From a virus (lineage: Duplodnaviria > Heunggongvirae > Uroviricota > Caudoviricetes): a DNA stretch of 35,624 nucleotides. Shown here one piece after another: positions 1 to 35,624 of this stretch; positions within the stretch are counted from its first letter, which is position 1, and the number at the start of each line of letters is the position of its first letter. The stretch lies in IMG/VR virus record IMGVR_UViG_2778261544_000009; one strand, given 5' to 3'. The notes below the pieces were generated by a model that worked only from the letters and a program-made list of their open reading frames with translations, was not told the DNA's origin and did not search any database. The translations under genes were made by a program, and so were the position numbers.

Positions 1-594
1 TCAACCTGCCTTCGCTTTTAAACTGTGCGAGAGATTACTAGCTTCAATTTCTGCCAAAATCTCTCTAACTCTATCATCAGATAGATTATCTAGAAGTAGT
101 GCCGCTGCTCGTTTTCGCCCTTCTAATTGGATCAACTCTTGGTTCTCAGGTTCCAGTAAGCGCGACAAGTATTTGGCTCCATTTAGTGCCAGGAGTTTGG
201 ACAACCGCTCAGCCTCCGGTGATTCCAGGGCACTCAGAATAGCCAGGAGGCGTTGTTGTGTGATATCGAGTGGTTGGTTCTGGGCGTTGTTATCTGTTTG
301 AGGATGTAACGACTCTGCGTCTACCTTACCAAAAACAAGCCAATCAATACTTACTCCTTCTGCAAAAGCTATCTGGCTAGCTACTTGTAGAGATGGTATC
401 GCATCTTTCTCAAAATAGTTATTAAGTGTAGAGAATGGAAGCCCCCACGCTTTCGCAACAGCTGTTTTAGACCGACCACGCATTAACTTTGCCAGTCGTT
501 CCTTGATGCTTTCTTTTTGAAATGCTGGAAAAGAAAAATCACTTTCTTTTTTATCGTTTTTTTCTTTTCTCTTAACTGTATGATTCATAAGCAT
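1..594 (-). CDS. Putative immunity repressor (c-like), HTH protein
   Basis: 197-aa ORF divergent from ner at the left end of the early region, with a stop codon at window positions 1-3. Called by position; it lacks the LPGxP winged-helix motif seen at the N-terminus of the transposase, so it may not be a Mu-c-type repressor. Confidence 0.55.
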   Translation of the reverse strand: MLMNHTVKRKEKNDKKESDFSFPAFQKESIKERLAKLMRGRSKTAVAKAWGLPFSTLNNYFEKDAIPSLQVASQIAFAEGVSIDWLVFGKVDAESLHPQTDNNAQNQPLDITQQRLLAILSALESPEAERLSKLLALNGAKYLSRLLEPENQELIQLEGRKRAAALLLDNLSDDRVREILAEIEASNLSHSLKAKAG

Positions 595-967: not shown

Positions 968-3055
968 ATGTTTGTGTCTGTCAACGAACTCGTGGGGCTG
1001 CCTGGTATGCCGGGAAGTGCGCAAGGTGTGAGGTACACTATAAAAAAATTGGCCTCATCAGAGCATTTTCGACGCAAACGAGCAGGTACAAAAGCCATTG
1101 AGTACCACATTGATTGTCTGCCGGAAGCGACTCAAAAGGCGCTGCGTGAACGTTATGTGGAACAACTGGTAGCTACGGAGCACAACGTTTCCGAAGTTCA
1201 GGTCGTTACCAGGAAGGCGCGCAATCCTGATGCTGTCCAGGCAATCGAAGCATATCGCGGTTCGCCACAACTGATGGAAGAACGCCTGAATGCACTGACC
1301 GAAAATCAGCGTCGGGTATCTGAAGCAAGGGCTGCGCTGGTGGTGGAAGTGCTGAAGCTGGAAAGCGACGGTAATCTCGGGCGGCTGAAAGCCATTAACT
1401 ATCTTGTCGAAAAAGCCCGTAAAGGTGAACTACCGGAACGCCTGCAACAGGCCGCAGTTAACGCCAATGCAAAACGTGGCGCTAATCGCACCATCAGTCG
1501 TGACCCGCTTTATCAGTGGGTGCTGAAGTACAACCAGTCACTGAACGCCGCAGAACGGCTGCTGTTACTGGCACCAGGAAAACGCGACGAAATAAAACCG
1601 GAACAAATTAGCTGGCTACCTGAGTTTCTGGCGCAGTATCGCCAGGTGAATGGCAGACCTATGTCTGAAGCCTACGAGGATTTTGTCGCAGAATGGCAGC
1701 GTCGCCATGCGGACGAACCGTACATGCTGGAGGTGATGCCTTCTTACGATGTGGTTCGTTATGCCATGAAGAAATTGCCGGAAGTGGTGAAACAAAAAGG
1801 ACGCGTTACCGGCAGTGAATACCGTCAGCTTGAAGGATTCACCCGTCGCGACTGGACAGCTATGCCGGTGAATTATGTGTGGATTGGTGACGGTCACGGT
1901 ATGAAGCTGAAATGTGCGCATCCGATCCACGGGCGTCCATTCTCACCGGAAGTCACATTTGTGATCGACGGTGGAACACGGTTTGTTGTTGGCTGGAGTC
2001 TTGACCTTGCCGAGAACGTGTTCGCCGTTGCCGGTGCGATACAGCACGGCATTCGCAACCACGGAAAACCGTTTCTGTATTACTCGGATAATGGTTCTGG
2101 TGAAACGGCTGACATGCTGGACAAAGAGGTCGTAGGTATTCTGCCCCGCCTGGGGATTAAACACCCTACCGGTATTGCCGGTAATCCACAGGGGCGCGGC
2201 ATTATTGAACGCCTGAACCGGACACTGCCGATGCGTATAGCCAGGAGGTATCGCACCTATTTTGGCAAGGGTGCTGACCGGGAGTCGTTGCGTGTACTTA
2301 ACCGTGATCTGCGTTCAGCGTTTAACGCCATGCAACAGGACAAGCCTCTGAACGACCGCCAGAAAGCTGCAATGCGCGAGCTACCATCGTGGGCAGAGCT
2401 TATTGAGGCTATTCGTGAAGGCGTGGAATGGTACAACAACCGCCCGCATTCTGAGCTGCCGATGAAACCGAACGGGCGGCATTACAGCCCGGCAGAGTTC
2501 AGAAAAAAACGCCTGGCAGAAGAAGACACCGAAATTGAGTGGCTGAGTGATCTTGAGCTGCGTGACATGTTCCGCCCGATGGTGGAACGCCCGGTAAGAC
2601 GGTGCGAAATTCAGTGGCTGAACAATATTTACTACGCGCCGGAGTTGCGTGACGAACACGGTCGCAAAGTGCTTATCAGTTATGACATTCATGACGCCGA
2701 GCGAATTACGGTACGTCGCAAGGACGGTAGCTTTATCTGTGAGGCGATATGGAACGGCAATAAACGCGCAGCCTTTGCTGTCAGTGCTGAATATCACAAA
2801 CAACAGCAGCGTATTAAAGGAATGCGCAAACGTGCTGAGGAAAAAATTCGTGATGCTGAGGATGAAGGCATTCAGATTCTGGAGCACAAACAGACTGAAC
2901 CCTGGCTGGATAATGTTTATCGCCCGGTTGGTAATACGGTAACCATCCAGCAACAGGATTATGAGGAGGATTACGACGAAGATTATGAACGCGATTTCAG
3001 GCTGGGTTTGCAGAAACTTGCAGCCATACAGGAACAGGATGATCCGCTGGCCTGA
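968..3055 (+). CDS. A: DDE transposase A (MuA-like)
   Basis: 695 aa; N-terminal ELVGLPGMPGSAQGV winged-helix-like motif, central VWIGDGHG catalytic block, acidic C-terminus. Followed immediately by the B ATPase. Confidence 0.93.
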   Translation: MFVSVNELVGLPGMPGSAQGVRYTIKKLASSEHFRRKRAGTKAIEYHIDCLPEATQKALRERYVEQLVATEHNVSEVQVVTRKARNPDAVQAIEAYRGSPQLMEERLNALTENQRRVSEARAALVVEVLKLESDGNLGRLKAINYLVEKARKGELPERLQQAAVNANAKRGANRTISRDPLYQWVLKYNQSLNAAERLLLLAPGKRDEIKPEQISWLPEFLAQYRQVNGRPMSEAYEDFVAEWQRRHADEPYMLEVMPSYDVVRYAMKKLPEVVKQKGRVTGSEYRQLEGFTRRDWTAMPVNYVWIGDGHGMKLKCAHPIHGRPFSPEVTFVIDGGTRFVVGWSLDLAENVFAVAGAIQHGIRNHGKPFLYYSDNGSGETADMLDKEVVGILPRLGIKHPTGIAGNPQGRGIIERLNRTLPMRIARRYRTYFGKGADRESLRVLNRDLRSAFNAMQQDKPLNDRQKAAMRELPSWAELIEAIREGVEWYNNRPHSELPMKPNGRHYSPAEFRKKRLAEEDTEIEWLSDLELRDMFRPMVERPVRRCEIQWLNNIYYAPELRDEHGRKVLISYDIHDAERITVRRKDGSFICEAIWNGNKRAAFAVSAEYHKQQQRIKGMRKRAEEKIRDAEDEGIQILEHKQTEPWLDNVYRPVGNTVTIQQQDYEEDYDEDYERDFRLGLQKLAAIQEQDDPLA

Positions 3056-3129: not shown

Positions 3130-4062
3130 ATGACCGATATTAATGATGTTTTCAATACGATTAATGCGCTGATTTCCGACGGCGTAAAAACTCAGGGTGT
3201 TATTGCTAAAGAAGCGGGCGTGTCAGAGGCCACGCTATCGGAACTTCGCAAAGGTCGTTACAAAGGCGATACCGAAGGGATGCATGACAAATTACAGATG
3301 TGGCATCAGGACTGGCTGAAAAGCCAGGAATTGCCAGGCGCGCCGCAACTTGTGGAAACACAAACCCTCCGTGATTTGCGCGAGCTGTTTCAGACCGTGC
3401 GTGTTATGGGATGTATCAGCGTTCTGGTTGGTGTGCCGGGTGTTGGTAAAACCGTTGCGGCCCGCGAATACAGTAACCGTGTATCTAATACCTGGATGGT
3501 GACCCTTTCCCCTGCACACTCAACAGTGACCGAGTGTCTGCTGGAACTGGCAGACGCACTGGGAATTGATAACCCGCAAAGGAGTAAAGGCGCGCTGACC
3601 CGTGCCATTCGCAAAAAACTGAACGGCACACGCGGTCTGGTGATTGTGGATGAAGCTGACCATCTGAGCATGGACGGGCTGGAGCAGTTGCGCGCCATTC
3701 AGGATGCAACAGGCGTCGGGATGGTATTGATTGGTAACCCAAGCCAGTTAGCCAAAGCCACACACCGGGGAACGGATGACCTTGCGCGTTTGTTCAGCCG
3801 TTTCGCCAGAACAAAACAACTGCGTAAAGCCAAAAAGGCTGATGTGGTGGCAATTGCGAAAGCCTGGGGCATTGAGGGTGAAGATGAATTATCACTCATG
3901 CAGAGCATAGCGGAAAAACCAGGTGCATTACGTGTATTAACTCATACGTTGAATCAGGCATGGCTGGCAGCCAGCGGGAAAGGTGTTCCGTTATCCAAAG
4001 GCTACATTAAAGCGGCTTTTAAAGAGGTTTACAGCAACCCGAAGTTACTGAACTGGTGGTAA
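3130..4062 (+). CDS. B: Transposition ATPase B (MuB-like AAA+)
   Basis: 310 aa with Walker A GVPGVGKT and Walker B VIVDEADHL; sits directly after the transposase. Confidence 0.9.
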   Translation: MTDINDVFNTINALISDGVKTQGVIAKEAGVSEATLSELRKGRYKGDTEGMHDKLQMWHQDWLKSQELPGAPQLVETQTLRDLRELFQTVRVMGCISVLVGVPGVGKTVAAREYSNRVSNTWMVTLSPAHSTVTECLLELADALGIDNPQRSKGALTRAIRKKLNGTRGLVIVDEADHLSMDGLEQLRAIQDATGVGMVLIGNPSQLAKATHRGTDDLARLFSRFARTKQLRKAKKADVVAIAKAWGIEGEDELSLMQSIAEKPGALRVLTHTLNQAWLAASGKGVPLSKGYIKAAFKEVYSNPKLLNWW

Positions 4063-4074
4063 GGGGCATAAATC

Positions 4075-4302
4075 ATGATGTCACGGAATATCAAAATGGC
4101 GACGGAAGTAAAGACCTGGTTACAGGAGCGCGGCAGCCACGTCAACGAATCCTGGCTGGGCGTGGCCCGCCCGGTGCTTGAAATAACCTGCCCGCCACCG
4201 GAGCTGGTCAGGAACGCCATCAGGATTATGGAGCATAAATCAGGGGTTGCCCGTTCAGTATGGACGGCCCGTCTTAATGGTTGTCAGATTATCTGGCGTT
4301 AA
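4075..4302 (+). CDS. Small early protein, kil-position homolog
   Basis: 75-aa ORF immediately after B; assigned by position only. Confidence 0.4.
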
Positions 4303-4334
4303 TAACGGCTTATTTATTTGTGAGGAATAACAAA

Positions 4335-4598
4335 ATGGCAAAAGTCATTATCGAAATCAAAAATGTGACATCTGAAGTTAAAGGGCAGCATTTACGCACC
4401 AATGTTAACGTGGACCACAGCGCAGAACTGGATGGTGATGAATACACGCTTGCTGGTGCGATAGCGTTACTGGTTCTGGAAAAAAGCCGGGATATCGTTC
4501 GCGAGTCAGCCTATGAGGCCATTGAAATACTGAAAAATGATGGCGTCATTTCGGGTGGCAGTGTCACAGAAGCGACAGTTGAAGGAACACGTCACTGA
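4335..4598 (+). CDS. Hypothetical early protein
   Basis: ORF with strong RBS GAGGA upstream of the ATG at 4335; the longer track ORF begins at 4281. Confidence 0.5.
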   Translation: MAKVIIEIKNVTSEVKGQHLRTNVNVDHSAELDGDEYTLAGAIALLVLEKSRDIVRESAYEAIEILKNDGVISGGSVTEATVEGTRH

Positions 4599-4612
4599 AA
4601 GGAACGCTGACA

Positions 4613-5032
4613 ATGAACGCCAAAATCAGAAACGAAATTCAGGCATTAATTCGAATTAAAATGCGTAATAACAATCCAGGAGAATTACGCGAATTTATTT
4701 TCACCCGCAAAGTTTATGAGCATGGTGAAACTACTTATCTGATTACATTTGACCATTACAGCATTTGTGCGCGTTATTGTGGCGAAAACATCTCTAATGC
4801 CATCACGTTTGGCGGTGCGTTTAACGAGGATTTATGGGAATACGTCATGGACCGCGAATACATCAGCGCGTCAGACCCGGACGCACGGGAGCAGTGGCAG
4901 AACATCTGGCGCGATTACCGGCAAATGGCGAAAGGCTGGACGCAGGGGACGTATTCTTCCCTTGCCCTGAAAGCAGTTCAGTTATCGCTGCGGCATATTC
5001 CGGCATCACTGCGCGAACCCCTGTTGTACTGA
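4613..5032 (+). CDS. Hypothetical early protein (139 aa)
   Basis: ORF in the co-directional early operon with an AAGGA RBS. Confidence 0.55.
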   Translation: MNAKIRNEIQALIRIKMRNNNPGELREFIFTRKVYEHGETTYLITFDHYSICARYCGENISNAITFGGAFNEDLWEYVMDREYISASDPDAREQWQNIWRDYRQMAKGWTQGTYSSLALKAVQLSLRHIPASLREPLLY

Positions 5033-5332
5033 GTGGTGACCGGAATGATGTGTAATCGTAAACGCTGGTCACGCGAAGACCGGGAATTTATCGAAGCCAG
5101 TGTCGGAAAAATGACCGTTGAAGAAATGGCGAAAAAACTGAAAGTTGCCACAACCGCCCTCCGGGCACATGCCAGAAGGCACGGAATATCGTTGTGTGCA
5201 TACCGAATCAGTGAGCACGACAAATATTTGTGTCGTGAACTTTATAAAGAAGGGCTGGCTATTCATGTCATTGCCCAAAAGATGGAATTAAGCAATCGTG
5301 CTGTATCCAGCATTGTATACAGCGAATATTAA
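5033..5332 (+). CDS. Hypothetical early protein with HTH-like segments
   Basis: 99-aa ORF starting at a GTG (first ATG at 5045); contains two helix-turn-helix-like stretches. Confidence 0.45.
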   Translation: MVTGMMCNRKRWSREDREFIEASVGKMTVEEMAKKLKVATTALRAHARRHGISLCAYRISEHDKYLCRELYKEGLAIHVIAQKMELSNRAVSSIVYSEY

Positions 5333-5351
5333 TTAACAGGAGCTTTATTAT

Positions 5352-5876
5352 ATGGCTAAACCAGCAAAACGAATCAAGAGTGCCGCAGCAGCTTATGTTC
5401 CTCAATCCCGCGATGCCGTGGTGTGTGATATTCGCCGGATTGGTGACCTGCAACGCGAAGCGGCACGACTTGAAACGGAAATGAATGACGCTATCGCTGA
5501 GATTACAGAGAAATACGCCTCACAGATTGCGCCCCTTAAAACCAGTATTGAAACCCTTTCAAAAGGCGTTCAGGGATGGTGTGAAGCGAACCGCGACGAA
5601 CTGACGAACGGCGGCAAGGTGAAGACGGCAAACCTGGTAACCGGCGATGTGTCATGGCGTCAGCGCCCACCATCGGTAAGTATTCGCGGTGTGGATGCGG
5701 TGATGGAAACGCTGGAGCGTCTTGGCCTGCAACGCTTTATTCGCACGAAACAGGAAATCAACAAGGAAGCGATTTTACTGGAACCGAAAGCGGTCGCAGG
5801 TGTTGCCGGAATTACAGTTAAATCGGGAATTGAAGATTTTTCTATTATTCCGTTTGAACAGGAAGCCGGTATTTAA
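5352..5876 (+). CDS. gam: Host-nuclease inhibitor Gam
   Basis: 174 aa starting MAKPAKRIKSAAAAYVPQ... and ending ...FSIIPFEQEAGI, which matches my recollection of Mu Gam. Confidence 0.85.
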   Translation: MAKPAKRIKSAAAAYVPQSRDAVVCDIRRIGDLQREAARLETEMNDAIAEITEKYASQIAPLKTSIETLSKGVQGWCEANRDELTNGGKVKTANLVTGDVSWRQRPPSVSIRGVDAVMETLERLGLQRFIRTKQEINKEAILLEPKAVAGVAGITVKSGIEDFSIIPFEQEAGI

Positions 5877-5916
5877 TACCACCACGAATATTTAATTAAT
5901 TCACTTTCTTTTAATT

Positions 5917-6201
5917 ATGGCGCGATGCGTCAGGGGATTGCTCGCGCCTGAATCTGAAATGGTGATGTTTATGACCACAAAGAGTGAACGACAAAAAACA
6001 GAAATAACAGCAGCAACGCTGATTAAAGACAGCGTCGAATGTCTGGCATCAGTACCTGCATTGATTCAACAGGCGAATGCAAAAAATCTCCGTCGCGCAG
6101 CTTCGTTTATTCGTGCAGGCATTACCCGCCAGATGATGATTGCGCAGCTGTGTATGCGCGAAGCACAGCGTCTGGAACAGATGGAGACGAGTGGTGATTA
6201 A
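5917..6201 (+). CDS. Hypothetical early protein
   Basis: 94-aa ORF; the true start may be one of the internal ATGs. Confidence 0.45.
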   Translation: MARCVRGLLAPESEMVMFMTTKSERQKTEITAATLIKDSVECLASVPALIQQANAKNLRRAASFIRAGITRQMMIAQLCMREAQRLEQMETSGD

Positions 6202-6376
6202 GTCAATTGGCTTTGTCCTGCTGGTTGGCACCTGTGGGAATGATGCCTGTGATGCTATCCCGGTAACAGAAAAAATCTGGCCCACCGAGCAGGCATGTAT
6301 GCAGGTGATGGAGCGCATACAAAAACATTATCCCAATGAAATCTTTTATTGCGAGGAGGTATTAAGAAATGAATAA
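6191..6376 (+). CDS. Small Cys-rich putative secreted protein or lipoprotein
   Basis: GGAG RBS followed by a GTG start at 6191; hydrophobic N-terminus IGFVLLVGTC followed by a Cys-rich stretch. The lipobox match is imperfect. Confidence 0.35.
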   Translation: MVIKSIGFVLLVGTCGNDACDAIPVTEKIWPTEQACMQVMERIQKHYPNEIFYCEEVLRNE

Positions 6377-6758
6377 CGCAGAGAAAAATGAAATTAAATC
6401 CACATCCGCCAGCACCAGAAAACATCTTTATGATTTTTATGTCGCTTATAACCAGTGGTTAAAAAACGGAGCGCAAGAAACGGAAGGGGAAGGGTTTATT
6501 CGGGGAGTCGGATTATGCGCCAATGTTTATGACTATTTTGAATCAATCGGAGCAGACAGCGAGGCTGCGCTAGAACAATTACATGCGGATTTTGTCGCGA
6601 GTGGGCTGGATGAATCCCTGCCATTTAATGTAGATAACGTGCACTACCATGATGAATGCCTGCATGACAGATGCCACCTGAATTCTGCTCGTGTGGCATG
6701 GGTCGAAAAACACTGCATTAAGGAGATGGGGCAAAATGAGTCGCACATCCCTGATTAA
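6369..6758 (+). CDS. Hypothetical early protein (129 aa)
   Basis: Excellent RBS GAGGAGG 9 nt upstream of the ATG. Confidence 0.6.
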   Translation: MNNAEKNEIKSTSASTRKHLYDFYVAYNQWLKNGAQETEGEGFIRGVGLCANVYDYFESIGADSEAALEQLHADFVASGLDESLPFNVDNVHYHDECLHDRCHLNSARVAWVEKHCIKEMGQNESHIPD

Positions 6759-7287
6759 ATTAATTCATGTTGCCCGCCGGGAGTTGCACCTCGACGATGA
6801 CACTTACCGCGCCTTTCTGGTGCAGTGCACGGGCAAAACCAGTTGCCGCGAGCTGTCCGTTGCACAACTGGAACAAGTGCTCGATGCCATGAAAGAGCGC
6901 GGTTTTAAAAAGCAGAAAAAACATCCCCGCCGTCGCTTTAAGGGGCATGTCACACCGCGCGAGAAGATTTATAAAATCTGGCAGCAGATGTTTCTTGATG
7001 GTTTCGTCTCCGATATCAGCGACGCCGCGCTGGACAAATACGTTGAGCGCCTGACAGCCAGACGTAATGGCGGACAGGGTGTTTCCACGCTGGCCTGGTG
7101 TCACGGGGAATCGTTGCAGGTTGTGCTCGAAACGCTCAAACAGTGGCATATGCGCTGCATCCGGGAAGCCTTTGCCCGACATGGTGTGCCTTTACCTGTG
7201 AGCGAAACCGGGCGGGAGCTGCGCGGCTATGATGCACTGACCAGTGCATATGCCCGCGCACGAAACAGCGGGAGAATTGCTGTATGA
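6736..7287 (+). CDS. gemA: GemA-like protein (Mu gp16 family)
   Basis: Sequence MSRTSLIKLIHVARRELHLDDDTYRA... is Mu gp16-family-like and the gene sits directly before mor. Start taken at the internal ATG at 6736. Confidence 0.65.
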   Translation: MSRTSLIKLIHVARRELHLDDDTYRAFLVQCTGKTSCRELSVAQLEQVLDAMKERGFKKQKKHPRRRFKGHVTPREKIYKIWQQMFLDGFVSDISDAALDKYVERLTARRNGGQGVSTLAWCHGESLQVVLETLKQWHMRCIREAFARHGVPLPVSETGRELRGYDALTSAYARARNSGRIAV

Positions 7288-7733
7288 AACAGATGAAAGA
7301 GCAGGATTTATTCGAAGACCTTCGGGACGACAGCGTTCTGGAATATCTTCATGATTACCAGGAAAACACCGCTTATCCGGCGTTAATTTCTGAACTGAAC
7401 GCACTGCTGCGTAAAGAGCTGGCCCGGATTGGCGCAGACCCTGCCCATTCCCTTGAGCTGGTTGTGGCGATTTGTCGCCATATCGGCGGGATGCAGGTTT
7501 ATGTTCCGAGGGGGAATATTCTGGAGAATCTTGTCCGGGATATGCGTATCTGGCGTGATTTTAACGGCCATAATATTCCTGAACTGGTTCAGCGTTACGG
7601 AGTGACGTATAAAACCGTCTACAAGGCCATCAAACGGATGCGACGTCTGGAGCGTAACAAATACCAGCCGGATTTGTTTTACCACTCCCCGAACCTGCCT
7701 CACCCCGTTCGTCGTCCGCCACTACGCCCTTAA
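7284..7733 (+). CDS. mor: Mor-family middle/late transcription activator
   Basis: Mor/C-family C-terminal HTH block ...RIWRDFNGHNIPELVQRYGVTYKTVYKAIKRMRRLERNKYQ...; last gene of the early operon. Confidence 0.85.
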   Translation: MKQMKEQDLFEDLRDDSVLEYLHDYQENTAYPALISELNALLRKELARIGADPAHSLELVVAICRHIGGMQVYVPRGNILENLVRDMRIWRDFNGHNIPELVQRYGVTYKTVYKAIKRMRRLERNKYQPDLFYHSPNLPHPVRRPPLRP

Positions 7734-7739
7734 TCAATG

Positions 7740-7763
7740 AAGCCGGTAAATCCGGCTTTTTTT
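7740..7763 (+). terminator. Intrinsic terminator at the end of the early operon
   Basis: Stem AGCCGG / loop TAAAT / CCGGCT followed by seven T, beginning 7 nt after the mor stop codon. Confidence 0.75.
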
Positions 7764-14562: not shown

Positions 14563-15319
14563 AACCCTCATCCCGAAAGAGGCGCTGGCGTGGCTGAAGG
14601 CGAAGAAGCTGCGCCCCGGTTTTGATTACCGGGATGTGTGGCGGGAAGAACACCGGAACAGCTTCACCGTGGCGAAAATGCTGCAACTGGATTTGTTGTC
14701 GGATGTGAAAGCCCTTGTGGAAGACGCCCTGCAAAGCGGGCAGACGTTCAGTGAGTTCCGGGAGGCGCTGCAACCACTGCTGATAAAACGCGGATGGTGG
14801 GGCATACAGGAGATGGATGATCCGCTGACGGGTGAAACCCGCACCGTGCAACTGGGCAGCGACCGCCGCCTCCGCACGATTTTTGACACCAACATGCGCA
14901 CTGCCCGCGCGGCGGGCCAGTGGGAACGCATTCAACGGACAAAGCGGGCCATGCCGTATCTGATTTACGAGCTGGGGCCATCCCGCGAGCACCGGGCGGA
15001 GCATGTGAAATGGGCGCGTCTGTGTCTGCCGGTAGATCACCCGTTCTGGCAGACACATTTTGCCCCTAACGGCTGGGGCTGCAAATGCACCATTCGTCAG
15101 GTCAGCCGTGGTGAGTATGCGCAACTGGCGGCACAGGGCACCATTCACACCGAAGCGCCGGAAATCAGAACTGTCCGCTGGGTGAACAAACGCACGGGCG
15201 AAGAGGAAGATGTGCCGGAAGGGATTGATCCGGGCTGGAACTACAATCCCGGCATAAACCGTGAGCAGGCGCTGGCGCGCCAGCTGGCGACAAAACAGGC
15301 CCGTTTTGACAGTGAGTAA
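14555..15319 (+). CDS. Head morphogenesis protein (Mu F-like)
   Basis: Follows the portal gene; start taken at the ATG at 14555 that overlaps the portal stop. Confidence 0.7.
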   Translation: MRETLIPKEALAWLKAKKLRPGFDYRDVWREEHRNSFTVAKMLQLDLLSDVKALVEDALQSGQTFSEFREALQPLLIKRGWWGIQEMDDPLTGETRTVQLGSDRRLRTIFDTNMRTARAAGQWERIQRTKRAMPYLIYELGPSREHRAEHVKWARLCLPVDHPFWQTHFAPNGWGCKCTIRQVSRGEYAQLAAQGTIHTEAPEIRTVRWVNKRTGEEEDVPEGIDPGWNYNPGINREQALARQLATKQARFDSE

Positions 15320-29684: not shown

Positions 29685-30215
29685 ATGGAACTCAGAAACG
29701 TCACGCGTTATTACCCGGAAGAGATGCCTTATGGTGAAAACATTCAGTATTTCCGCAGTGAAGACGGACAGGATTTTTATGAATCACTGGATAAATTCAC
29801 GAAGAAATACAAATTGTGTATTCACCCTGAAAGCGGCGTGATTTATTCAATGGCGGAAGACGTGTCCCGTCTTTATCCGGCTGGCTTCACCATTGTGGAA
29901 GTGGATGAACTGCCGGAAGGTTTTGGCATTGAAGCCAGCTGGTATTACAAAGACGGCGAAGTGCTGCCGGTTCCTGTTGATTACTCGCGACTGGCAGAAA
30001 AAAAACGCCAGAGCCTGCTGAATGAAGCGAAGGACATCACCTCCGACTGGAAAACCGAGCTGGAGCTGGGCACCATCAGCGACGATGATAAAGCCCGTCT
30101 TACGCAGTGGATGGCATATATCAAAGCGGTAAAGGCACTGGATTTAAGCACCGTTACTGACGAAGCCTCCTTTTACTCCATCAACTGGCCGGAGCGTCCC
30201 GATGCCGCAGCTTAA
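29685..30215 (+). CDS. Tail fiber assembly protein (Tfa/U-like)
   Basis: AAGGAG RBS then ATG at 29685; ends ...INWPERPDAAA, typical of Tfa chaperones. Confidence 0.7.
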   Translation: MELRNVTRYYPEEMPYGENIQYFRSEDGQDFYESLDKFTKKYKLCIHPESGVIYSMAEDVSRLYPAGFTIVEVDELPEGFGIEASWYYKDGEVLPVPVDYSRLAEKKRQSLLNEAKDITSDWKTELELGTISDDDKARLTQWMAYIKAVKALDLSTVTDEASFYSINWPERPDAAA

Positions 30216-33200
30216 AGGTGTGATTAAAACGCCCACGGGAGAACCGCTGGGCGGCGCAACAATTACACTGACCTCCCTGCACAACCGTGCAGGGATTCTG
30301 AAAAGTGTTTTCAGCCATGTCACCACACAGAGCGGGGAGTACGACTTCCCCGTTCTGCCGGGTGTGTACAGCGTTCGCCTGACACAAAGCACACAGCGCC
30401 TTTCAGAAATCGGTGTCATCCGCGTTTATGAGGATTCAGCGGACGGTTCGCTGAATGATTTTCTGGGCGCAACCGATATTGACCTGCGCCCGGAAGCCCT
30501 GAAGAAATTCGAGGAACTGGCGCAACAGGCGCAGCAAAGCGCAGAAAAAGCAGGAGAGCACGCCACCGCTGCTGAACAGGCCCGCCAGGATACAGAAACG
30601 CTCGCCTGGGAAATACAGCAGGATGCAGAAGAAATTGCGGGTAATGTGCAGAAAGCTGAAGAGCTGGCCTCTGAAACAAACCAGAATGCCGCCCGCGCAG
30701 AGCAGGCTGTCAAGGATGCTGACGCGATAGTCCAGAAAGCGGTCGATAAACTTGCTGATGCTGCAACGCTGACCGGCGAGGCAAAAGCCAGCGCCGAAGC
30801 GGCAGCAAAAAGCGAACAGAACTCGAAACAGCACAGGGACGAGGCGCAACGGATAGTTGATGACCTGAAGGGAAGCAATGCCTCCACGACGGAAAAAGGC
30901 CTGGTGCAACTCTGTAGTGATACAGACAACGACAGCGAAGAACTGGCAGCCACACCAAAGGCTGTCAAAACCGTCATGGACGAGACGAAAACAAAAGCTC
31001 CACTGGACAGCCCGGTGTTCACCGGCACGCCAACCACACCAACCCCACCGGATGATGCAGTCGGTCTGGAAACCGCGAACGCGGCATTTGTTCGCAAACT
31101 GCTCGCCGCACTGGTTGACTCGTCACCGGAAGCCCTGGACACACTGAATGAGCTGGCAGCGGCGCTGGGCAATGACCCGGAGTTCGCGACAACAATCATG
31201 AACGCGCTGGCGGGTAAACAACCACTCAGTGACGTGTTAACCGCAATCAGTAATCTGGAAGAACGGGCAGATAATCTTCTGTGCTTTAATCAGGACGGGA
31301 ATGCTTCACTGTCTCCGCTGTCAGAAAAAGCCCGGTCACTGCTGGCACAGGCCACAGTGGAAGCCATGCGCAATGAGCTTGAGCTGAAAAGCGCGGCGGT
31401 AAAGGACATTCAGACAGACCTTTACGACAGCTCGGAAGGCCGTGTTGCGCTGCCTGGTGCATTTGGTTACGGAATGACGGACGCCGGAGCGCGTTCAATT
31501 ATTGCCAGCGATATGGCGACTGTAGCCAGAACTGCGCACAACCTGCACCCGGGACGGTATTACACCTTTTCCACACAAACGGAAGAGACGACCGGAATAA
31601 CAGAAATTATCTGGCTGGATAATGGCTGGGGCGACAAAACAAGCCAGACAGCAACAAAGCTGGTTCTGTTTTTTGGAAAAGACGGACGGATTCTTATGAC
31701 CGTTCGTGGCGATAATATCTCCGCCCCGGTCACCTGGACGAATCTGACGCTACAACTGGGCAATGCAGCACAGAAGGATGCACAGGAGAATATTTACGAC
31801 CGCACCGAAGGCCGTCTGGCGATTCCCGGCATGTTTGGATTCGGGAAAGTATTTTCCAGCGGCGACAGGACCGAATTTAAAACAGAGGCCGATTTTCTCC
31901 GCTGGGTAAAAACAGCAAAACCCGGTCGTTATGTCGTTTATGGCGCAGATAAAGTGATTCCCGGAGTCCTGTTCAGCGGCACCGTTGAAATTATCTGGCC
32001 GGAACCTCAAACCAACTCCAATCCGGTATATGTGGCCAAAATCATTATTTTTTACGGTATTAACGGCCATATTTATTACAATCGCTACTGGACTACCGGA
32101 GATGGTTATCTGGTTGGCTGGGAAAACCTGAAAGTCAACGAGGCTTCACTCCGGGCACTGATTGAAACCCGCGCGCCACTGAACAGCCCGGCACTGACCG
32201 GAACGCCGTCCACGCCAACACCACCAGATGATGCAGCAGGTAATGAAATAGCCAATGCGGAGTTTGTCCGCAAACTGCTTGCCGCGCTGGTTGGCTCATC
32301 ACCGGAAGCCCTGGACACGCTGAACGAACTGGCGGCGGCACTGGGCAATGACCCGAACTTTGCGACAACAGTCACTAATGCACTGGCAGGTAAACAGCCG
32401 CTTAATGACGTGTTAACGGCTGTCAGCCAGATAACACCGGAAGAAAACACACTGCCTTATTTCAGTGAAGAGGGCCGGATTTTACTGGCGCAGCTGTCAG
32501 AAAAAGCCCGCGCATTACTGGCACTGGACACACCTGAGGCCATGCGCACGGAGCTTGAACTGAAAGCGGCTGCGACGATGGAGCCCCAGAGCGATATCCG
32601 CGACCGCACACCAGGCAGACTGGCACTGTCCGGCATGTACGGATTCGGTCAGGCATTTGCCAGCACCGACGCCCTGACATTTACCGGACAGGCTGATTTT
32701 GCTGAATGGCTGAAAGAGGCCACCCCGGGGCGTTATGCGGTCAGTATTGCGGACTCTTCCACGCTGCTGGCTGGCACCACGAAATTTAACGGCATCATTG
32801 ATGTGATGTGGTCGCCCTTTGATAACGATGAATCGGACACAACGCGTAAATTCAAAACGTTGCTGTGTTTTAACCAGTATTACGAAGGCGAACACAGCAT
32901 TCATCGCCTGACTTACCGCTGGAGTGGAAACAACTGGAATGCAACAGTAAGCCCTGTCATTTACGACGGCGATTCGCTGGCGTTCTTACTCTCCCGGACA
33001 GCAGGCTCAGGCTCATATTACAAATATCCGGCAGTTGGTGTGCCGGTTATGGCGGCATATCAGGGGGAAAGTTTTGGTGCTGATGTGTCTCTGGGACTCG
33101 GTGATATTGTGCCGGGTTCCCGTCTTGGCCCTCTGGCTATGAGTGCTTCAGTTAGCGATACAGGGACATACGTATCCACACCGCAAGTGGCAATTGGTGG

Positions 33201-33306
33201 TGCCAGTGCATACAACTTTCCCGGTCGTTATATGGCGCTTTCGGGGTCACGCAGTAATCACGATACAAAACGTGGCTATATTGGTCTTTTTGTGCGTATC
33301 GAGTAA
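30202..33306 (+). CDS. Side tail fiber protein (lambda Stf / P2 H-like), 1034 aa with internal repeats
   Basis: N-terminus GVYSVRLTQ...IRVYEDSADGSLNDFLGA matches the Stf-family N-domain; two copies of the LAATPKAVK...APLxSPxxTGTPTTPTPPDD...LVDSSPEALDTLNELAAALGNDP collar repeat; three GRLAxPGxFGFG...PGRY tip-like modules. Confidence 0.85.
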   Translation: MPQLKGVIKTPTGEPLGGATITLTSLHNRAGILKSVFSHVTTQSGEYDFPVLPGVYSVRLTQSTQRLSEIGVIRVYEDSADGSLNDFLGATDIDLRPEALKKFEELAQQAQQSAEKAGEHATAAEQARQDTETLAWEIQQDAEEIAGNVQKAEELASETNQNAARAEQAVKDADAIVQKAVDKLADAATLTGEAKASAEAAAKSEQNSKQHRDEAQRIVDDLKGSNASTTEKGLVQLCSDTDNDSEELAATPKAVKTVMDETKTKAPLDSPVFTGTPTTPTPPDDAVGLETANAAFVRKLLAALVDSSPEALDTLNELAAALGNDPEFATTIMNALAGKQPLSDVLTAISNLEERADNLLCFNQDGNASLSPLSEKARSLLAQATVEAMRNELELKSAAVKDIQTDLYDSSEGRVALPGAFGYGMTDAGARSIIASDMATVARTAHNLHPGRYYTFSTQTEETTGITEIIWLDNGWGDKTSQTATKLVLFFGKDGRILMTVRGDNISAPVTWTNLTLQLGNAAQKDAQENIYDRTEGRLAIPGMFGFGKVFSSGDRTEFKTEADFLRWVKTAKPGRYVVYGADKVIPGVLFSGTVEIIWPEPQTNSNPVYVAKIIIFYGINGHIYYNRYWTTGDGYLVGWENLKVNEASLRALIETRAPLNSPALTGTPSTPTPPDDAAGNEIANAEFVRKLLAALVGSSPEALDTLNELAAALGNDPNFATTVTNALAGKQPLNDVLTAVSQITPEENTLPYFSEEGRILLAQLSEKARALLALDTPEAMRTELELKAAATMEPQSDIRDRTPGRLALSGMYGFGQAFASTDALTFTGQADFAEWLKEATPGRYAVSIADSSTLLAGTTKFNGIIDVMWSPFDNDESDTTRKFKTLLCFNQYYEGEHSIHRLTYRWSGNNWNATVSPVIYDGDSLAFLLSRTAGSGSYYKYPAVGVPVMAAYQGESFGADVSLGLGDIVPGSRLGPLAMSASVSDTGTYVSTPQVAIGGASAYNFPGRYMALSGSRSNHDTKRGYIGLFVRIE

Positions 33307-34019: not shown

Positions 34020-34205
34020 ATGGACTCTGTTCGCTGTAAAAACTGCAATAAATTACTGTTTAAAGGAGGTTTTAAGCATATAGAAATTAAATGCCCTCGC
34101 TGTAAACGTTACATTGTCATATCGAATGCCAAAGAGCATCCCACGGAGCTGTATTGTGGGAAAAGAGAAGAAATCACGCATTCTGACAAAACCCTGCGTT
34201 ATTGA
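34020..34205 (+). CDS. com: Com zinc-finger translational activator of mom
   Basis: 61 aa, CKNCNKLLF...CPRCKR zinc finger ending ...[10 protein letters not shown]; AGGGGGA RBS. An alternative ATG lies at 33993. Confidence 0.85.
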
Positions 34206-34851
34206 GTATGAAGGCCGGATTGTCGGCTATGGTTCAAAGGAGCTGCGCGTTGAAACCATATCCTGCTGGCTGGCCCGCACAATCATTCAGACAAAACACT
34301 ATTCCCGCCGTTTTGTGAATAACTCCTACCTGCATTTGGGCGTATTCAGCGGACGTGATCTGGTTGGTGTTCTTCAGTGGGGATATGCCCTTAACCCCAG
34401 CTCAGGGCGTCGTGTTGTGCTGGAAACGGATAACCGGGGCTATATGGAACTGAACCGCATGTGGCTACACGACGACATGCCCCGCAATTCTGAATCACGG
34501 GCCATCAGCTACGCGCTGAAAACCATCAGGTTACTGTACCCGTCAGTGGAGTGGGTTCAGTCCTTTGCAGACGAACGCTGCGGACGTGCTGGCATGGTAT
34601 ATCAGGCGTCGAATTTTGATTTTATAGGCAGCCACGAAAGCACGTTCTACGAACTGGACGGCGAGTGGTATCACGAGATAACGATGAACGCGATTAAGCG
34701 CGGAGGACAACGAGGCGAGTATTTACGGGCTAATAAGGAGCGGGCCGTGGTACACAAATTTAATCAGTATCGCTACATCAGATTCCTGAACAAGCGCGCA
34801 AAAAAGCGCCTAAACACTAAGCTATTCAGGGTTCAGCCATACCCGAAGTGA
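34126..34851 (+). CDS. mom: Mom DNA-modification protein
   Basis: Overlaps the 3' end of com, as in Mu. Start uncertain: TTG at 34114, ATG at 34126, or GTG at 34156. Confidence 0.8.
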
Positions 34852-34896: not shown

Positions 34897-34976
34897 TCTT
34901 GAATAACTTCCATATGCGCGCTTCTGGCTTATCTTGAAAGAATTCCATATCTATCTTGAATAATTTTGCGCGCTTT
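34891..34976. repeat. Right-end (attR) terminal repeats, putative transposase binding sites
   Basis: Three direct copies of ATCTTGAA(T/A)A at 34895, 34930 and 34953; GCGCGCTT at 34915 and 34969. The phage sequence ends ...TTTTGCGCGCTTT(A) against host DNA. Confidence 0.6.
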
Positions 34977-35624
34977 AGTTTCTCTGGCGCGCTCCGTAAA
35001 CCCCGGGAACAGAGGCAGCTTGATTTCCCGACACATCTGAATGGCAAAGTGTTCTGCCATCAGCATAATGTCGCTTTCGCGCTCGCGCAGGGGCGGCAGT
35101 TGCACTACATCGAAAGCCAGCCGGTCGAGCAGGTCAGCGCGAAAATTACCTTCATTGACCATCGCCGGGAGATCGGCATTCGTCGCGCATACCAACCGCA
35201 CATTCACCTGCAATGGCTGGCTGCCGCCAACGCGCTCCAGTTCACCGTACTCAATCACACGCAATAATTTCTCCTGCACCATCATCGGTGCCGTAGCGAG
35301 TTCATCAAGAAATAGCGTACCGCCGTCGGCACGTTCAAATCTCCCTGGATGACGTTTTTGCGCACCGGTAAACGCGCCCGCTTCGTGACCAAACAGTTCG
35401 GAATCCAGCAGATTTTCATTTAACGCCGCGCAGTTAAGGGAAATAAACGGCCCCTGCCAACGGGAGGAGAGATAATGCAGACGGCTGGCAATCAGCTCTT
35501 TACCTGTGCCGCGCTCGCCGATGATGAGCACCGGTTTGTCCAGCGGTGCGAGATGCGAAACCTGTTCCAGCACTTCGAGAAAGCTGTTCGCCTCACCGAG
35601 TAAATTATCTTTGTATTCTGCCAT
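34977..35624 (-). pseudogene. pspF: Host pspF (sigma-54 activator of the phage-shock operon), 3' end truncated by the prophage
   Basis: The N-terminal ~216 aa (MAEYKDNLLGEANSFLEVLEQ...GERGTGKE...GFTERARET) match my recollection of E. coli PspF; after ERARET the frame runs 15 codons into phage DNA to a stop at 34929. Confidence 0.85.

Follow-up and report, generated by a model that had tools for sequence, protein, structure and literature searches.

The viral record IMGVR_UViG_2778261544_000009 of IMG/VR, whose 35,624 nucleotides (nt) are called here the window, is a Mu-family transposable prophage with the order Ner-A-B-early block-GemA-Mor-endolysin, followed by morphogenesis genes and by Mom at the far end. 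The early block considered here (positions 4075-6758) is located between B and gemA. It is very probably an ordinary semi-essential early region of the Mu type, with a B-proximal part orthologous to that of Mu and three genes, o6, o7 and o8, in an exchangeable slot between gam and gemA. The initial annotation of this region had proposed nine short open reading frames (ORFs) on the same strand; the run of ORFs is confirmed but their number is not, as the block consists of eight co-oriented genes on the plus strand. These genes and the spacer that separates their two groups are listed below (aa, amino acids; identities to Mu were obtained by tblastn against Mu's left end and cover essentially the full length).

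4075-4302, plus strand: kil, 75 aa, 84% identical to Mu Kil over the full length; phrog_2743 (E 7.8e-39, residues 1-75).
4335-4598, plus strand: gp7/E6 orthologue, 87 aa, 69% identical to Mu gp7; phrog_10252 (E 5e-38).
4613-5032, plus strand: gp8/E7 orthologue, 139 aa, 81% identical to Mu gp8; phrog_3690 (E 1e-81).
5045-5332, plus strand: gp9/E8 orthologue, 95 aa (99 aa from the GTG at 5033), 91% identical to Mu gp9.
5352-5876, plus strand: gam, 174 aa, 93% identical to Mu Gam; PF07352 (E 1.9e-43).
5877-5952, plus strand: non-coding spacer after gam, 76 nt, left breakpoint of the cassette slot.
5971-6201, plus strand: o6, 76 aa, without Mu counterpart; phrog_24376 (E 4e-41).
6194-6376, plus strand: o7, 60 aa from the GTG at 6194 (61 aa from 6191); phrog_16556 (E 4e-27).
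6369-6758, plus strand: o8, 129 aa, without Mu counterpart; N4 gp3-like early-protein family.

The genes of this block are tightly packed, as had been proposed. From B to o6, they are separated by 12, 32, 14, 12, 19 and 94 nt (the last gap follows gam), and the next ones overlap, by 8 nt for o6/o7, 8 nt for o7/o8 and 23 nt for o8/gemA. The good ribosome-binding sites (RBSs) that had also been claimed are found for most of the genes but not for all: Shine-Dalgarno-like motifs lie 5' of most starts (for instance, GAGGA 8 nt upstream of the start of the gp7-like gene), those of the gp9-like gene and of o6 being weak (GGTGA). Consensus scans found no promoter-like or terminator-like site on the plus strand within 3900-7738, and no RNA family of Rfam was found anywhere in the window. 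Within the early operon, the block would be one translationally coupled unit, located after A and B and continuing into gemA and mor.

All eight ORFs match PHROG families, with E-values ranging from 1e-27 to 1e-81. Their comparison with homologues from Mu and E. coli prophages by the Nei-Gojobori method gives ratios of non-synonymous to synonymous substitution rates (dN/dS) of 0.08-0.09 for kil, ~0.25 for gp7, 0.17-0.43 for gp8, 0.16-0.33 for gp9 and at most 0.09 for gam among the B-proximal genes, and of 0.44-0.50 (on few substitutions) for o6, 0.03-0.11 for o7 and 0.12-0.23 for o8 among the cassette genes. All eight genes are thus under purifying selection, with dN/dS of 0.03-0.50. Furthermore, the RefSeq/NCBI calls on near-identical prophages give the same models of 76, 60 and 129 aa for o6, o7 and o8. 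Since the PHROG matches, the low dN/dS and the independent annotations agree, these ORFs are considered as real genes. It is very unlikely that some of them, o6 or o7 above all, are chance ORFs. They are indeed short, and o6 combines a weak RBS with a dN/dS of 0.44-0.50, calculated on few substitutions; however, every ORF has its PHROG family, starts and stops are coupled, the independent annotations find the same genes, and o7 has both a low dN/dS and homologues in distant phages. A longer form of o6 (94 aa, from the ATG at 5917) was rejected: this ATG is not preceded by an RBS and falls within the conserved hairpin spacer described below, and identical upstream codons are found in frame with unrelated cassettes that have annotated starts downstream.

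The B-proximal part of the block (kil, the gp7-, gp8- and gp9-like genes and gam) would be little changed from the Mu lineage. Gam had been considered as the only recognisable product of the block, which does not hold: Kil is readily identified by its identity to Mu Kil and by phrog_2743, and the gp7-, gp8- and gp9-like proteins are clear orthologues of Mu E6, E7 and E8. Gam itself scores 148.4 bits with PF07352, for a cut-off of 28.3, and the Pfam family PF26843 (Kil_protein) is recorded for a 75-aa gene found at the same position in related contigs. By homology with their Mu counterparts, Kil would be responsible for host killing, and Gam would bind DNA ends and shield the phage DNA from host exonuclease. 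The gp9-like protein matches phrog_323, "transcriptional regulator, D5-like" (E 4e-27), and shows weak, sub-threshold matches to helix-turn-helix families (RWP-RK, HTH_Tnp_1, sigma-70 region 4, Cbp1); it is predicted to be a helix-turn-helix DNA-binding protein. Its gene is found in all 52 surveyed loci and kil is missing from only one, gp6 and gp8 being variably present. The gp8-like gene is missing from some related prophages and its product has no Pfam or PDB relative.

As proposed in the initial annotation, remote homologies were sought for the ORFs. These searches were fruitful as regards PHROG families, found for all the ORFs, and the relationship of o8 with N4 gp3. Pfam, NCBIfam and PADLOC gave no match for kil, the gp7- and gp8-like genes, o6, o7 and o8 (the Pfam copy scanned does not include PF26843), and no significant match to known defence or anti-defence families for the seven genes other than gam. 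In these scans, the gp9-like protein gave sub-threshold helix-turn-helix matches and one weak match to GajB (E 0.0024). Searches of PDB sequences with single proteins and with profiles returned nothing meaningful for the proteins of the block. In the same way, the literature on the PHROG families, the Mu early genes, anti-defence in Mu-like phages and N4 gp3 yielded no functional study of the genes of the block.

The semi-essential region of Mu, which extends from kil to gemA (Mup05-Mup16), occupies the same place on the same strand, between B and gemA/mor. It includes 14 ORFs, mostly unassigned, which are transcribed together with A and B; functions lethal to the host are encoded there, and the viability of the host after infection is restored when the region is deleted (PMC3325207, PMC3820752). 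In the window, kil, gp7, gp8, gp9 and gam are orthologous to those of Mu (69-93% aa identity), and the spacer that follows gam and the terminator that follows mor are also shared. By contrast, gp6/E5, which precedes gp7 in Mu, is absent, and gp11-gp15 are replaced by the three unrelated genes o6, o7 and o8, so that the gam-gemA interval spans 859 nt instead of 1907 nt in Mu (862 and 1910 nt according to tblastn end-points). The possibility that o6, o7 and o8 are diverged forms of Mu gp11-gp15 was examined by direct comparison and rejected, only chance-level matches being obtained. According to the initial annotation, a match of all ORFs to well-characterised Mu early proteins with known housekeeping roles would have spoken against host-takeover or anti-defence functions in the block; five of the eight genes have Mu orthologues, and o6, o7 and o8 have none. 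At the nucleotide level, homology to Mu covers 4329-5952 and is found again from the start of gemA at 6736. The transposition proteins are far more diverged, A sharing ~29% identity with MuA and B ~44% with MuB, against 69-93% for kil to gam, which points to a strongly mosaic phage whose transposition and accessory modules would have different ancestries.

The distribution of variability within the block was assessed in 80 viral contigs encoding relatives of Gam, in Mu and in five E. coli prophages. Counts were made on the loci with a Gam at least 90% identical, in which B, gam and gemA were located and the ORFs between them were clustered. The B-gam interval shows about 5 gene orders and 6 families in 52 loci, while the gam-gemA interval shows about 28 gene orders and ~21 ORF families in 48 loci. 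The gam-gemA slot is therefore a cassette hotspot. The initial annotation had presented the whole block as a variable set of host-interaction genes: variability holds for the gam-gemA slot, and the o7 and o8 families do occur in an early context, whereas the B-gam interval hardly varies. The gam-gemA interval of the window (~860 nt) is the shortest of the surveyed set. Its o6-o7-o8 order is unique in the survey sample and was also found in one NCBI assembly (L100). In five other contigs, o7-o8-gemA is preceded by different first genes, and further contigs carry o6 and o7 without o8, or o8 without o7. The presence/absence variation that gp6, gp8 and all the genes of the slot show among related prophages agrees, indirectly, with these genes being dispensable for plaque formation.

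Homology breakpoints are found at 5952-5960, 6195, 6333, 6376-6404 and 6735, and coincide with gene boundaries; homology to Mu and several prophages ends at 5952-5960 and restarts at 6734-6736. The left breakpoint follows the spacer 5877-5952, which shares 93-96% nt identity with Mu 6326-6401, against ~85% for the flanking genes. This spacer includes a GC hairpin without U-tract (arms 5919-5925 and 5942-5948), which is retained, with one compensatory change, in 60 Mu-family loci, among them relatives whose Gam is only 76-81% identical. The spacer could serve to anchor recombination, or it could act on RNA as an element of processing or stability. The slot would thus be bordered by the hairpin spacer on its left and by the start of gemA on its right, small genes being swapped at gene boundaries between these two edges, and in the window it would have received o6, o7 and o8 where Mu has gp11-gp15.

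Two other arrangements of this slot were observed. In E. coli FDAARGOS_943 (L004, 4554-4737), a frameshifted o7 homologue is found at the position of gp13 within an otherwise Mu-like gp11-gp12-gp14-gp15 arrangement, which indicates a single-gene replacement within the slot. In four IMG/VR contigs (L049, L052, L056 and L062), the gam-gemA interval carries a 252-aa ORF (e.g., start L062:6090) that joins, in frame, an o8-like domain and a Mu gp13-like CxxC zinc ribbon. This fusion is a hint that the N4 gp3-like domain may be functionally connected with the small Cys-rich proteins of the slot.

The homologues of o6 are confined to Mu-like prophages of E. coli and Salmonella, and neither Pfam, NCBIfam nor PDB profile searches gave an informative match for this protein, its PHROG match being phrog_24376.

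The o7 family is small, with members in Salmonella, E. coli, Shigella and Tatumella and relatives at 42-54% identity in temperate phages infecting Yersinia, Aeromonas and Hafnia. In these distant phages, the gene belongs to the early-left operon, where it follows the recombination genes and precedes methylases, xis and int. The protein has four invariant cysteines (C14, C19, C35 and C53). The abundance of Cys in this 61-aa product had been considered as unusual for an early gene; since Mu gp6 (E5) and gp13 (E14) are also small Cys-rich proteins, such proteins appear normal in this region. Like o7, gp13 has 60 aa and a similar place in the slot, but the two proteins do not share any sequence similarity, and the paired CxxC motifs of gp13, typical of a zinc ribbon, contrast with the C-x4-C and two distant Cys of o7. 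The AlphaFold2 model of o7 (mean predicted local distance difference test, pLDDT, 91.5) includes strands 2-14 and 19-29, helix 32-45 and strand 50-59. Hence, o7 is confidently predicted to be a compact beta-beta-alpha-beta protein, in which the hydrophobic leader described in the initial annotation is a strand of the core.

It is quite improbable that o7 is instead a small exported lipoprotein, e.g., a superinfection-exclusion factor. Its N-terminus, MIKSIGFVLLVGTC, is certainly hydrophobic and ends in Cys. However, the rules for a signal peptide with a lipobox, [LVI][ASTVI][GAS]C with the Cys at 15-35, do not describe it: the window protein carries V-G-T-C, with a Thr at -1, and its Cys14 is, like the first Cys of every homologue (residues 12-14), below the range of the PROSITE rule. 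A charged n-region is not found either: the window protein has one Lys, and neither Lys nor Arg precedes the Cys in 6 of the 13 distinct homologues, all four distant ones among them. Furthermore, the N-terminal segment is not outside the fold, as the model pairs residues 2-14 with 19-29 in a beta-hairpin (pLDDT 85-92 there), and lipidation would leave an odd number of cysteines, three. The o7 protein would rather be a compact cytoplasmic alpha/beta protein with four Cys, probably a metal-stabilised binder of a host protein. Its predicted fold may recall that of AcrIC8 (PDB 8g9s), a 70-aa anti-CRISPR with 8% identity and no relation at the sequence level. Since a topoisomerase III domain scores equally and ClpS nearly so, this likeness suggests a generic fold.

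A word-indexed search found only enterobacterial relatives of o8; an exhaustive profile search retrieved 927 cluster representatives (E<=1e-3). Most of them stand alone, as proteins of 95-120 aa; in some, the domain is repeated two or three times or is fused to other domains. The fusion partners (PF04447 dATP/dGTP pyrophosphohydrolase with DUF7415; DUF551) were considered as a possible indication of function, but they are sporadic and give no consistent clue. None of 109 family members matches Pfam, and the o8 profile did not match any PDB sequence. The family is found in 218 records of sequenced phages, including phAPEC8-like myophages, Rhizobium phages, phi92 and BcepSauron, all the copies being annotated as hypothetical. 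Of 72,556 plasmids, a single one has the domain, and it is a phage-plasmid with phd/doc.

The relationship between o8 and N4 gp3, first suggested by a note in an annotation, is confirmed by hhalign (probability 99.5%, E 2.8e-22, 99 aligned columns). N4 gp3, phAPEC8_0044 and gp8 of Achromobacter phage JWAlpha (PHROGs 6418 and 2510) have in common with o8 a domain of ~100 aa, the signature FYxAYxxW...GLCxN...PFN...HLNxxRxxWV and an early-gene location. On the N4 gene map, gp3 is placed between gp2 and gp15/16; since these are products of early genes (PMC4496689), its own early expression is inferred. In N4-like podophages of Achromobacter and Erwinia, the gene of the o8 family is close to the left end. 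The phAPEC8-like genomes carry up to 5 N4 gp3-like copies, and the one copy inspected, at 14770-15090 in phAPEC8 (L012), lies amid a long run of small hypothetical genes. Besides these common features, o8 differs from the N4 gp3 family by an N-terminal extension of 17 residues and a disordered C-terminal tail; furthermore, it is carried by a temperate transposable phage, whereas the N4 gp3 homologues are found in virulent phages.

In this family, G48, L49, C50, P85 and F86 are invariant, the polar residues R45, N52, N87, Y93, E96, H103, N105 and R108 are each conserved in 81-99% of the members, and the signature positions (G48, L49, C50, P85, F86, N87, H103, N105, R108, W111 and V112) are invariant or at least 83% conserved among 109 members. 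AlphaFold2 gives a confident, all-helical model that does not resemble any solved structure. The pattern of residues would suit a catalytic or ligand pocket better than a fast-evolving inhibitor of protein-protein type. The o8 protein could thus be a small cytoplasmic protein with a conserved pocket (Cys50 and near-invariant Asn, Arg, Glu, Tyr and His) which, early in infection, binds a ligand or works as an enzyme, as its homologues in N4-like and other virulent phages presumably do.

Taken together, these data argue strongly for an ordinary semi-essential region. The roles of Kil and Gam are carried over by homology, those put forward for the other products being inferred. Several points weigh against this interpretation, or against parts of it: the gp7- and gp8-like genes, o6, o7 and o8 have no characterised homologue; the survey of the slot relied on crude ORF calling, some of its families are probably shadow ORFs and its counts are approximate; promoters and terminators were scanned for by simple matching to a consensus; column conservation is the single basis of the pocket proposed for o8; and three distant o7 homologues carry LVSAC or LISSC, which fit the core of a lipobox, with their Cys at residue 12-13.

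Anti-defence or host-takeover roles, as proposed in the initial annotation, are plausible in such a region, and it is possible, though on balance rather unlikely, that at least one of the unassigned genes, o8 or o7 in the first place, encodes a dedicated anti-defence protein directed against host immunity. The variability of the slot and the early context of the o7 and o8 families in unrelated phages fit the general idea of accessory host-interaction genes; the family scans described above gave no significant match to known anti-defence families. A more specific and doubtful proposal is that the o8/N4 gp3-like domain is an unrecognised small enzyme or small-molecule binder (e.g., of an immune-signal nucleotide), with a pocket formed by C50, N87, Y93, E96, H103, N105 and R108, and that Mu-like, N4-like and phAPEC8-like phages use it to neutralise a conserved response of the host within the first minutes of an infection. 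If true, the gam-gemA slot with its hairpin spacer would be a dedicated exchange site for such counter-measures.

The non-Mu genes might alternatively serve phage replication or transposition rather than interaction with the host. Genetically defined functions of Mu (arm, lig and cim) have been mapped to this region without being tied to ORFs, and the Mu record carries a kil/cim note. The non-Mu genes could be functions of this type, being in one operon with A, B, gam and gemA, and the older Mu functions mapped here being still unassigned to ORFs. However, phages that are otherwise near-identical exchange these genes freely and Mu has none of them, and the o8 and o7 families are also found in phages that do not transpose, which makes such a role unlikely. 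An ordinary semi-essential region, with a conserved Mu-like part and an exchangeable slot, accounts best for the block.

The other features of the window agree with a Mu-family prophage and include the following.

1-594, minus strand: repressor, at the left end of the window.
968-3055, plus strand: A (transposase).
3130-4062, plus strand: B.
6736-7287, plus strand: gemA, 183 aa, 81% identical to Mu GemA; PF06252 (E 1e-32); right edge of the cassette slot.
7284-7733, plus strand: mor, overlapping gemA by 4 nt; PF08765 (E 1.1e-29).
7739-7759, plus strand: terminator-like site directly after mor, the first on this strand 3' of the block, at a position that agrees with the Mu record.
34114-34851: Mom homologue (PF25680).
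34929-35624, minus strand: truncated host sigma-54 activator of the RtcR/PspF type, beyond Mom.

The succession of Mom and of the truncated host activator places the right end of the prophage near 34.9 kb. The host is probably Salmonella, since the exact o8 protein, found in many NCBI and Logan assemblies, belongs to a 99%-identity cluster named Salmonella enterica. The closest nucleotide matches of the left end are the Yersinia phages vB_YpM_5 and vB_YpM_6. The tail-fibre gene (30202-33306) encodes 1034 aa, against ~500 aa for Mu S, which is unusually long for a Mu-like phage; its product has a prophage tail-fibre N-terminal domain, DUF4376 follows it and a lambda gpK-like assembly protein is encoded upstream. 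An exchange of the host-range module is probable.

Taken as a whole, such a block is to be expected in a Mu-family prophage and contributes little; its value lies in the map that it provides, which sets the conserved genes shared with Mu (gp7, gp8 and gp9) apart from exchangeable cassettes. The gam-gemA interval may be viewed as a natural collection of small early genes whose recombination boundaries are defined. Besides this map, the analysis yields a quantified hotspot with its hairpin boundary, a corrected reading of the putative signal peptide of o7, a definition of the o8 family and its link with N4 gp3. Through this link, o8 is tied to a large uncurated family that also includes multi-copy genes of virulent coliphages. 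Because of its conserved polar residues and as it has neither a Pfam model nor a solved relative, this family is a reasonable target for functional screens of early proteins. Were it characterised in a genetically tractable phage such as Mu or N4, hundreds of phage genes would be annotated together.

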